A stretch of DNA of 64,000 nt from positions 1 through 64,000 of the forward strand of contig BTVI01000018.1 in assembly GCA_045862955.1 (NCBI GenBank), read 5' to 3'. This document shows, piece by piece, positions 35,801-38,800 of this stretch (positions are counted from its first letter, which is position 1; every line of letters starts with the position of its first letter). This DNA is from Fimbriimonadales bacterium (lineage in GTDB: Bacteria; Armatimonadota; Fimbriimonadia; Fimbriimonadales; JABRVX01). Made by a program: the position numbers.

Positions 35801-38800
35801 CCCCCTGCTCGCCAGCCGGGTGAGCGAACTGCCGCCTCCGCTGGTAGTGTATCCGGGAGAGACCATAGTTCTTAGGACCGACAGGCCGCATGACCCGGGA
35901 TTCTACGGTTGGGTTCCAATGGATCCTCCCAAGACTGGAGACCCCGACGTTCAGTGGATAGAGTACGGGGAATGGAAGGAGGGCTATTGGCGCGCCTTCG
36001 GCGGCACGCTCGTAAGCGCCGACGAAAGAACGGTAGTGTTCCAAGCCCCGATCGAGGCAGGTCTCGCATTCCTGGAATGGAGCGATGGAGGCCATGAGCC
36101 CATTTGCTTAGCTTTCGTCGTGCCAGGTAGCGATATCGAATGGGACACTGAGGTCGAGCTTCCGACGGAACAGCTTGATGGCCTCGACGGCTCGTATCTG
36201 CCGTCTGCGGGAGGGAGTTCGTTCCGTGTTTTCGCAGTCCATCCTTGCGGTACGGATTTGCAGAATGATCGCCCGTGCGGGGAGGGGTTCGCGTATGCGG
36301 AGAATCTGCGTCTCGTTCCGGGAAAGCGACCTAATCCGGGATGCCAGGCAGGCGAACGCACCTCCGTTCACAACTCGAAGGAATTCTCGCTTCCTCCGAC
36401 TAGTGAATATGCGGGGAAGGTTTCGATACGCGGCGTCGAGGTAGTCGTCAATCGCATAAAGATCCTGAGTCATCGGCTTGAACTGTGGGACTGCTACGAA
36501 TGCAGAGATGGCGTGTGGAAATGGTGTGGTAACAGAGCAAAGGACTGGTGGAGGGTGTACATCACATACTCTCCAGAAATTGCCCGATCAGTGGCTTGTG
36601 CAATCTTTAGGGATTGCGGTTGGACGGACTATGGCTTTCAGGATCGCGCGTCCGGATGCTGCAAAGGCTGGACACAGCGGGTTCCGAGGTAACGGGAGGC
36701 CCCCGCTTTGGGGCAGAACGGAGGAGAGTAATGGTGCAAGAAGGCAAGAATGGGTTGACAACTAGTTCCAAACGCTGGTGGTTCGCAGGTTTCTGTGCGA
36801 TCGCGGTCGTTGTCGGCACCTACGTGCTAGCCCGTGCACCGCAAGATCGCGAAGATTTGGCCTTCGTTGGCTCCGTCAGCGAGAAGGTCAGGGCGCGGAT
36901 GTTGTCGTTGCTGCCCGACCCGAACGAGACGGCGAGCTGCACAGACGAAGTCGTTCGAGGGCACAGGATAAAGTGCAGCCGAACGCCACGCGGCACATGC
37001 ACGCTGCTAGTGCCGCCGGGTACTGAAATCCTCTTCGAGCTAAATCGTGCCATCCCGCCCTATGATGCGTTTTTGGTTGAGGTCTCTTCGGAGCTGGAAC
37101 GGCAGGCTTCCGAACTCCGCTGGGTGCCGCCGCCACCGCAACCGGTCGTGGTAGGGTCTAGCGGACAGTGGGGGGGCGACGGGCTCGTTTGGGCTACCGA
37201 TAAGTACATCTTGTACGTCGCCTCGGATCACCCTGGGAATCACGATACCCTTAGCCTATGGGAACCTGCAGGCATACGAGGTACTCACGGATTTCGCTTG
37301 ACCATTGTTAGCTCTGGCAAAGGAGTACCCGGCACACGCTTGACCGACGTACCGAAAGATAGCTGGTGGGGATTGGGAAGCGGTTTGCGCCTTCGCGTAG
37401 TTCGAACGCGTTCTGCTGAGGAATTGGGCGAGAACCGCCTTCTGCCGCCCGGCGCTGTCGAAATGCAAGGCCACAACCTTTCCGACGGGGGAAGTTACCC
37501 TTTGTACCGACTTCCCGGAAGACCACTCTCCAGCCGACCTGATCTGGCTCAGATGACAGAGCATCAACGGCAAGTGTGGCAGGCTGAAGCGCAAGAAATG
37601 GTCCGGCAGTACTTGAGGGAGGCCAATGTAGGAAAGTAAGTCGAGTGCCCGCATTGTGGTGTGGGTACGCGGACACTTCCAGTTTGTCGCTTGCTGTAGG
37701 TGGTGCCGTACCTGGGCATAACTCGAGGCTGGATGCCCACATTCGCATGCGCCAAATCGCACCTACGCAATGAGAACCGGAGGAGGCGCCGGGGCGTCCT
37801 CCGGCTTTCTACATGCCATACTATGGAAGCCTGCCAGCGCCGTCGAGAAGATTCCTCGACTTTTTTCGCCCAGCGACCTAAAGAGCCGAGAGAGCCGCGC
37901 CGATAATGCGATTAGAGACCGTTGGCTTCTTGACAGTCAAAGGCAAACCCGTAGCGATGCGGGGACGCAAAGCCAAGGATCCCAAGTGGACAGCCTGGTT
38001 GCCTGTCTGGGACTTCGGTGACGAACCCATGAGGAGGGTCACGAATGAAGATCTCAGGCACTGAATACGAAAAGGTCATGCGCCTCGTTCAGGATCACCT
38101 GGACACCGCCGATTCTCCCACTCCATCCGCCGACGCCACGGAGTCTGCCGTGGACCCCGAAGAGGCGAAGCTGATCGAAGAGATGGTTCGCCGGGTGGAG
38201 GAGCTCCCCGATGTGCGTGAGGACGTGGTGGAGGACATCCGCGCGCGCATCGCGGACGGGACGTACAAAATCAACTCCGCCGCTGTCGCCGAGTTGATGC
38301 TCCGCCGCTCCCGAGCCGACCGCCTGAAGTAGCGCGGAATTTGGGACTGCGCGAGCCCGCTCGCGCTTTGGCCGCAGGGACCAAAGTGTCGGCGCGATAG
38401 CGCGAGCAGGCTCGCGCAGTCCCACAGCGCTCCTCCCGCCCCGCTATCCCCGTATCCGCCCTGGAGGATGGGGCAATGGTGTCCGTCATGCTGAGCCTGT
38501 CGAAGCATGACGAGCGGGCGCGCCGTCCCTTGTCACTGACGCAGCCTCCCCCCTCGGATGGAGTGCCACCGTCGCCAAGGTGCCTGTCCTTGCCGGCGAG
38601 CAGTCATCCAGTAACTTCCGGCCGACCAACTCGCCATCACCGCCCCACCCGGCCAATGTAGCGATATAATGTATCCACCGGAACTGAACTGGGAAGGGTA
38701 GGTGGATGGTATGCGCTGCTCTGTGCGACTTCTGTGCGCCGCGGCCCTCGCGCTCGGGATGCTCACCCCCGGCCTCGCACGCTGGGACGATGACCAGCGG

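Follow-up and report, generated by a model that had tools for sequence, protein, structure and literature searches.

The anti-sigma-28 gene flgM of this Fimbriimonadales bacterium stands directly behind a class I c-di-GMP riboswitch aptamer, and the two are genuine and widely conserved: an anti-sigma gene under predicted riboswitch control, whose aptamer is ordinary and whose expression platform is unusual and well evidenced. We think it likely that a FliA promoter and a canonical c-di-GMP-I leader act together here as a translational ON switch for flgM that damps sigma-28. Under this hypothesis, a sigma-28 (FliA) promoter would transcribe a leader of about 130 nt together with flgM. At low c-di-GMP, nucleotides 38004-38012, which contain the 3′ strand of the P1 helix, would pair with flgM codons 3-6 and hold the Shine-Dalgarno sequence and the AUG inside a long hairpin; little FlgM would be made and sigma-28 would stay active. 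At high c-di-GMP the ligand would lock P1, strip the hairpin of its base and let ribosomes enter. The raised FlgM would then bind FliA and damp sigma-28 promoters, including that of flgM itself, as a negative feedback. Lower late flagellar expression would be the last step, and is the weakest one in this genome.

Organization of the flgM locus

The window, which is the whole stretch of 64,000 nucleotides that was analysed, contains the following features of the flgM locus:

37842..37870, + strand: possible intrinsic terminator, a stem with T6 (one found versus 0.7 expected in shuffled sequence, weak alone)
37878..37883, + strand: sigma-28-type −35 element CTAAAG (with the −10 element, 14/14 to the two-box consensus)
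37899..37906, + strand: sigma-28-type −10 element GCCGATAA (same 14/14 two-box match)
37932..38007, + strand: c-di-GMP-I aptamer, canonical as judged from its sequence (RF01051 59.7 bits, RF03167 64.3 bits)
38004..38060, + strand: predicted OFF-state hairpin (fold of −24.5 kcal/mol, with covariation in relatives)
38008..38029, + strand: alternative local hairpin with a GUGA loop (−8.1 kcal/mol, z −1.92)
38032..38037, + strand: Shine-Dalgarno sequence AGGAGG, read from the sequence
38045..38332, + strand: flgM, encoding a 95-aa anti-sigma-28 factor, a single gene with no flgN after it
38342..38424: palindromic REP-like hairpin 3′ of flgM (−66.3 kcal/mol, z −8.7)

The 95-aa product of the reading frame at 38045-38332 had been named FlgM in the preliminary description of this DNA, and we agree: it matches PF04316 (E 8.9e-14, 51.9 bits versus a cut-off of 25) as well as TIGR03824 (43.4 bits versus 40.75), and no second FlgM match occurs in the genome. 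Its neighbours are, on the 5′ side, an unannotated reading frame ending at 37639 and, on the 3′ side, the gene of a large beta-helix/PKD protein, which begins at 38702. The stem and T6 at 37842..37870 are a possible insulator of the leader from the upstream gene. Sequences similar to the REP-like hairpin occur at about 39 places across the genome, and it is probably a dispersed repeat outside the switch. A 52-aa reading frame that overlaps the aptamer was rejected as spurious, as had been suspected before: it matches no family at cut-off, and a start with an open frame is kept in only 5 of 173 loci.

Each of the four metatranscriptome runs examined, from 19 listed, holds one near-identical contig that spans the aptamer into flgM. 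These contigs start between 37926 and 37955, none of them crossing the promoter, and they are mute on start, strand and level; DNA was possibly present, and they were not weighed as evidence.

FlgM inhibits sigma-28. A model of the complex between FlgM residues 30-95 and FliA scored 0.69, with 0.02 for the best control, on a scale where 51 of 78 solved pairs and 2 of 108 mismatched ones attain the mark; contact agreement between runs was at least 82% and partner pLDDT at least 79. Because like complexes have already been solved, this score expresses only likeness to known sigma-28/FlgM complexes, and inhibition of FliA by this FlgM is accordingly given here as a prediction. On the signalling side, the genome encodes six GGDEF domains, four of which look intact by eye and have Asp at the guanine-binding site, and three HD-GYP motifs; no EAL domain was matched in this 97.6%-complete genome.

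Conservation of the aptamer-flgM pair

We detected FlgM in 185 of 228 genomes of the order, with 150 matches listed, and RF01051 in 127 of 151, nearly always once per genome. Where a listed FlgM and an RF01051 match occur in the same genome, the aptamer immediately precedes flgM, in the same orientation, in 90 of 94 cases. Loci were fetched from both directions, covering 146 of the 150 listed flgM genes and 44 of the 47 riboswitch matches not yet tied to flgM; an aptamer is present at 138 of the 146 flgM-first loci, and flgM at 35 of the 44 riboswitch-first loci. The pair is thus found in 173 of the 179 order genomes examined, this one included, in 62 of 63 genera and in all five families. Of the eight flgM-first loci that lack an aptamer, four belong to genomes of a single genus and have TATAAT immediately 5′ of the start, three come from another genus and show a sigma-54-like motif, and the last is at the end of a contig. 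Most genomes of the order yielded no c-di-GMP-I riboswitch other than the one at flgM.

The pair extends to 34 of 74 other genomes of the phylum and 11 of 30 families, in a sample of 80 genomes chosen from 117 with FlgM so as to be spread over families. These counts measure spread and not significance, kin being non-independent; the pairing of aptamer and flgM is nevertheless far beyond chance. The earlier claim that the pair is kept in relatives thus holds throughout the order and in other families of the phylum.

A putative sigma-28-type promoter and its regulon

The sigma-28 consensus is TAAA-N15/16-GCCGATAA. Upstream of the aptamer, CTAAAG and GCCGATAA agree with it at 14 of 14 positions and are separated by the spacer that is commonest in the order. 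Across the order, a motif with at least 10 of 14 matches precedes 155 of 172 leaders, 29-44 nt before G20, versus 8.4% of shuffled sequences. With a matrix built from the flgM promoters of relatives, which favours the flgM site, this promoter is the best site in the genome (26.9, versus 22.5 for the next). The same promoter is kept before flgM genes without a riboswitch elsewhere in the phylum, and no sigma-70 promoter was found at the leader. We tie the motif to the flagellar sigma factor because it is found before 11 of 32 flagellin loci across the order as well, versus 0.6% in shuffles. These observations suggest that 37878-37906 is a sigma-28-type promoter, with sigma dependence being predicted, and we infer a transcription start near 37913.

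The link from sigma-28 and FlgM to flagellar genes is weaker in this organism. The three flagellin genes of the genome score 2.2, 9.6 and 7.0 bits, all under the 12-bit mark, and the other top promoter matches do not lie before recognisable flagellar genes. It is accordingly conceivable, although we regard it as unlikely, that the switch is real and ON while sigma-28 and FlgM mainly control targets other than late flagellar genes, with no switch from swimming to sessile life in this bacterium. Such a regulon would account for why no good match to the promoter lies before any of the organism's own three flagellins or before 21 of the 32 flagellin loci overall, and those members of the phylum that are in culture have been described as lacking motility. 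It would also agree with an all-genome scan for promoter plus aptamer, in which exact motifs were required: at least 75 downstream reading frames were recovered, two of which encode FlgM, both in Armatimonadota, and outside the phylum the layout precedes pilins and exported proteins. Against it, the promoter is present at those 11 flagellin loci; genomes hold 2-3 flagellins, of which mostly one per genome was tested; flagellin is encoded in 39 of the 41 order genomes searched; and the present genome has FlhA and a single FliA over cut-off. We keep damping of sigma-28 by the ON switch as the preferred reading, and a lowering of late flagellar genes, with any effect on motility, as its most conditional consequence.

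A helix between the P1 strand and the flgM coding sequence

The hairpin at 38004-38060 sets the 3′ strand of P1 and the bases that follow it against flgM codons 2-6 and encloses both the Shine-Dalgarno sequence and the AUG. It is unusually stable (z −3.42, with 0 of 200 shuffles as stable) and it excludes P1, so that the two helices are mutually exclusive. A transcriptional terminator platform was considered and rejected: none of the 173 loci has a run of at least four T separating its aptamer from the start codon, and thus there is no U-tract terminator. Together with the short distance from C92 to the start codon (median 32 nt), this points to translational control.

Covariation was followed in 89 loci that have a UGUC-type P1 strand and Ser4-Asp/Gly5. 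Positions +1 to +7 are paired in 88-89 of the 89, a figure in which +1 to +4 are partly paired by choice, since the loci were preselected, and the free tests are +5 and the outer positions. The base at C93+5 pairs with the silent third base of Ser4 in 89 of 89 loci (U-A in 76, C-G in 6, G-C in 6, U-G in 1). The U-A class comprises 28 genera; TCA makes up 51 of the 615 other serine codons in the same flgM genes. On a tree computed without those codons, by a quick method that leaves many open forks, the pair underwent three changes to C-G and three to G-C, of which at least two plus two are forced by well-supported branches, giving at least four independent compensatory changes. When partners are swapped between the U-A and G-C classes, 4-6 kcal/mol is lost. 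From this pattern of substitution, we conclude that the helix between P1 strand and codons is under selection.

The competing helix is not uniform across the order, and by a per-sequence shuffle test it is significant in only 80 of 172 leaders. In one family the same P1 strand pairs with the Shine-Dalgarno sequence instead, and in some genera (14 of 172 leaders) it is a 5′ strand that does so; in lineages whose pairing has moved to the Shine-Dalgarno sequence, Asp5 is mostly lost. One locus (L094), whose start had been misassigned, was left out of the opening-cost, competing-helix and tree analyses.

Predicted direction of switching

We compared the cost of opening the ribosome footprint with and without the aptamer fold imposed, in folds that include 27 nt of coding sequence. 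With the aptamer forced, opening became easier by a margin of over 1 kcal/mol in 135 of 154 leaders, and harder in one. A forced P1 biases the result toward an apparent ON switch by construction, and the corresponding control gain is 1.1-2.1 kcal/mol; in leaders of the coding-helix type the median gain is 4.3 kcal/mol versus 1.1 after synonymous recoding, and higher in 80 of 84. In a second set with 15 nt of coding sequence, in which the key helix is cut, access was reduced on binding in 2 of 155 leaders. For the leader studied here, opening is predicted to cost 9.0 kcal/mol in the bound and 14.2 kcal/mol in the unbound state. The alternative hairpin at 38008-38029, which is kept in a genome of the same genus, would free the ribosome-binding site in the ON state. 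The earlier description had proposed that c-di-GMP turns flgM on through this leader; from the eased access and the canonical pocket described below, a c-di-GMP riboswitch that is most likely ON remains the best account.

The size of the response is a separate matter. The predicted bound state here keeps a hairpin remnant of −16.4 kcal/mol, stronger than the alternative hairpin (−8.1 kcal/mol); the aptamer forms at a cost of 7.8 kcal/mol, tertiary and ligand energy not counted; and P1 is predicted not to form unaided even in a short transcript (probability 0.0, aptamer z −0.55). For these reasons the ON state may be partial, or may be set kinetically within the roughly 50 nt between completion of the aptamer and transcription of its competitor. 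That the bound state remains structured would also suit helices acting mainly on mRNA stability or Rho-dependent termination and not on initiation as such, and the output mechanism of Vc1 and Vc2 is stated to be unknown in the accessible part of PMC4744006. We nonetheless hold this to be improbable, as the competing strand is in every case located at the Shine-Dalgarno sequence or within the first codons, with tight spacing.

An opposite sign, in which ligand binding would make the 5′ leader pair with the Shine-Dalgarno sequence and so lower FlgM, was suggested by one constrained fold of the same-genus leader, and the 14 of 172 leaders whose 5′ strand pairs with that sequence point the same way. 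Such an OFF switch appears very improbable: access in the bound state is reduced in only 1 of 154 and 2 of 155 leaders, and the 5′ anti-Shine-Dalgarno segment overlaps, by eye, the strand that extends P1, with which P1 would compete. The translational ON switch thus remains our working hypothesis.

Class and predicted ligand of the aptamer

The aptamer had been assigned to the c-di-GMP-I-GGC variant by a match to RF03167 at 37933-38007 (+) of 64.3 bits, over a cut-off of 59. The match itself is reproduced; the assignment is not. RF01051 is matched over its full length (positions 1-87) with 59.7 bits versus a cut-off of 35, a margin of 25 bits compared with 5 bits for RF03167, and RF03167 is kept in the Rfam clan competition through raw score (64.3 versus 59.7). 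Among the 150 candidates that each search scored, this aptamer is the only match in the genome to either model. Aligned to RF03167, it has GACGC-A-AAG against GACGC-G-AAg in the model, with an A in a conserved-G column of the linker between the hairpins.

The ligand pocket consists of G20 (37942), A47 (37969) and C92 (38002), in a numbering anchored on the accessible parts of PMC7288161 and PMC4744006. The linker between the hairpins is AAA (37969-37971), which in the GEMM class is "virtually always AAA" (PMC1950547, in the part available). P1 is formed by 37932-37936 and 38003-38007, a GCGA tetraloop lies at 37954-37957, and the inter-helix pair is C44(37966)-G83(37993). In an alignment of 43 sequences, one per genus, 87.3% of cells are paired, with 0 of 500 shuffles as high, in a count that omits the distal P2 stem, whose two registers misalign; two-sided changes occur at nine aptamer pairs, and C44-G83 is present in 43 of 43.

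Aptamers with G20/A47/C92 bind c-di-GMP; the name GGC presumably stands for G20/G47/C92. The 173 flgM-linked aptamers have G/A/C at these positions in 168 cases, A/A/C in four and G/A/U in one; G47 occurs in 0 of 173, with a parser that left positions 20 and 47 free. Given that the central ligand position is A and not G, we classify the flgM-leader aptamer, from its sequence, as canonical c-di-GMP-I and an ordinary member of RF01051, for which binding of c-di-GMP is predicted. The caveat in the preliminary description that most relatives may be ordinary c-di-GMP-I was well placed, and the idea of a natural job for the GGC variant falls away, since the pocket is canonical here and in nearly all relatives. 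In the available parts of the literature that contains the term, GGC variant is used only as the name of the model. Canonical aptamers can evidently receive the Rfam label GGC through their raw score, and position 47 should be checked wherever that label has been assigned.

It is hardly credible that the aptamer is a GGC variant or senses another ligand such as 3′3′-cGAMP, for although raw bits are higher for RF03167 and A20 is found in four of 173 relatives, A47 mismatches the conserved G of the model with no G47 among the relatives, this copy has G20, and of the 20 GGDEF loci in the four genomes with A20, the 7 that were readable all have Asp and not the Hypr-type Ser, so that among these nothing was found to connect A20 aptamers with enzymes of the Hypr GGDEF type. 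A c-AMP-GMP (GEMM-Ib) identity, which needs A20, was likewise rejected.

Comparison with known systems

In the literature searched, mostly non-subscription and without the Sudarsan 2008 and Weinberg 2017 supplements, we found no c-di-GMP riboswitch leader of flgM, no riboswitch platform of the flgM type inside a coding sequence, and nothing on c-di-GMP riboswitches of Armatimonads. The word riboswitch is absent from a 2026 review (PMC13432727), and the accessible parts of PMC12564702, PMC13432727, PMC7266159 and PMC5473149 contain no leader of the flgM type. As far as the available part of PMC1950547 extends, competing terminators are described for the GEMM class, and its supplement names FlgM once, as the eighth gene of a predicted operon.

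The closest relatives of the aptamer itself are the RF01051 members Vc2 and Vc1 of Vibrio cholerae. They resemble it in fold, in the GNRA-capped P2 and in the AAA linker, and, from the parts available of PMC1950547, PMC4744006 and PMC5888326, in the G20/A47/C92 contacts and in C44-G83; the present leader is set apart by its sigma-28-type promoter, by having a single gene behind it, which encodes an anti-sigma factor, and by a competing helix that lies within the coding sequence. RF03167 shares the scaffold, its cut-off being passed by 5 bits, but the G at the central ligand position is absent here. The output mechanism of terminator-less class I riboswitches is unclear in the type cases, and the natural compensatory mutations at flgM make it testable by single silent changes.

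In its predicted output, the system resembles Cd1, which lies before flgB in Clostridioides difficile and is likewise a class I c-di-GMP riboswitch that cuts flagellar output at high c-di-GMP. According to the available part of PMC5386303, Cd1 acts on transcription as an OFF switch, is driven from a sigma-A promoter and controls the early structural operon in which the sigma factor is encoded, whereas the leader described here is predicted to turn on translation of the inhibitor and to be transcribed from a promoter that the sigma factor itself recognises. In Streptomyces, c-di-GMP likewise strengthens the hold of an anti-sigma factor, RsiG, on a sigma factor of the flagellar clade, sigma-WhiG; there, in the portion of PMC7005675 available, c-di-GMP works on the complex of the two proteins, and the fold of RsiG is unrelated to FlgM, in contrast to the predicted control of the synthesis of a true FlgM by binding to an RNA leader. 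The classic FliA-FlgM checkpoint of enterobacteria, Bacillus and C. difficile shares the FlgM family and the flagellar-sigma-dependent flgM promoter (PMC5386303, PMC13432727, in the parts available), but here a riboswitch stands between promoter and flgM.

We see roughly even chances that the flagellar checkpoint has been rewired through RNA across a large branch of the phylum, with a sigma-28-driven flgM closing a feedback loop and c-di-GMP setting its gain, and that the conserved N-terminal Ile-Ser-Asp of FlgM is kept in the main lineage largely because its codons serve as the riboswitch's switching strand, the platform lying inside the coding sequence. RNA-level control of the anti-sigma factor itself would represent a third route by which c-di-GMP restrains a sigma factor of the flagellar clade, beside the OFF switch on the structural operon of C. 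difficile and the ligand-armed RsiG of Streptomyces.

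flgM genes lacking the aptamer

Elsewhere in the phylum, in the flgM loci that have no aptamer (L193-L222), we observed that the sigma-28-type promoter is mostly kept, with a short leader. The encoded proteins mostly begin M-[RK]-I-[DT], whereas aptamer-bearing FlgM sequences mostly begin M-[KQ]-I-S. The retained promoter, together with this difference in the N-terminus, hints at a single insertion of the aptamer in an ancestor of part of the phylum.

Within the order, three genomes of genus g40 (G145, G143 and G142; loci L016, L047 and L079) carry a flgM copy with no aptamer and with a sigma-54-like element, TGGCAC-N5-TTGCA. 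Two of these, G142 and G143, also encode a second, divergent FlgM that retains both the sigma-28 promoter and the aptamer (L173, L174), and the remaining g40 genomes have the usual flgM layout with a long spacer. In genus g33 (L060, L063, L087, L097), both aptamer and sigma-28 promoter are gone from flgM; a TATAAT lies 6 nt ahead of its ATG, which suggests a leaderless sigma-70 transcript.

Variation in the aptamer before flgM

Four genomes, spread over three genera, have an A20 aptamer before flgM (L025, L051, L075, L184), with the cGAMP-type base at this position of the ligand-contacting pocket. No Hypr-type GGDEF (Ser in place of Asp) was found among the seven of 20 GGDEF loci with a readable motif. 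Position 92 is U at L120 and L161 and, by eye, at L212. The aptamer of L011 (G166) has canonical ends and a P3 insert of about 100 nt made of short repeats, large enough that RF01051 misses it.

Surroundings of flgM and a possible fusion protein

Further features of the window are as follows.

34188-34679, 35688-36692 and 36731-37639: series of ORFs preceding flgM
38342-38424 and 4849-4935: long REP-like palindromic hairpins; similar sequences occur at about 39 sites genome-wide
38702-44077: 1791-aa protein that looks secreted and contains PKD domains as well as repeats of a right-handed beta-helix unit

The upstream ORFs have a 'PGTEILFEL'-like or 'PGETIVL'-like stretch in common, and Pfam and NCBIfam scans of two of them gave no match; they are possibly a lineage-specific paralogue cluster.

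On another contig of the source genome, a single 458-aa open frame apparently contains both a degenerate GGDEF domain and one of the sigma-70 family (G000:C25:3382-4535), a possible c-di-GMP-sensing sigma factor fusion.

Promoter and aptamer outside Armatimonadota

Outside Armatimonadota, among the matches listed from the all-genome scan (L223-L302), the gene that comes after a sigma-28/WhiG-like promoter and then a c-di-GMP-I aptamer is often one for a type IV pilin, in Solirubrobacterales and other Actinomycetota. Genes for CAP-domain proteins are also often found downstream of this pair, as are, in Deltaproteobacteria and Nitrospira, those for small FlgB/FlgC-like rod proteins.
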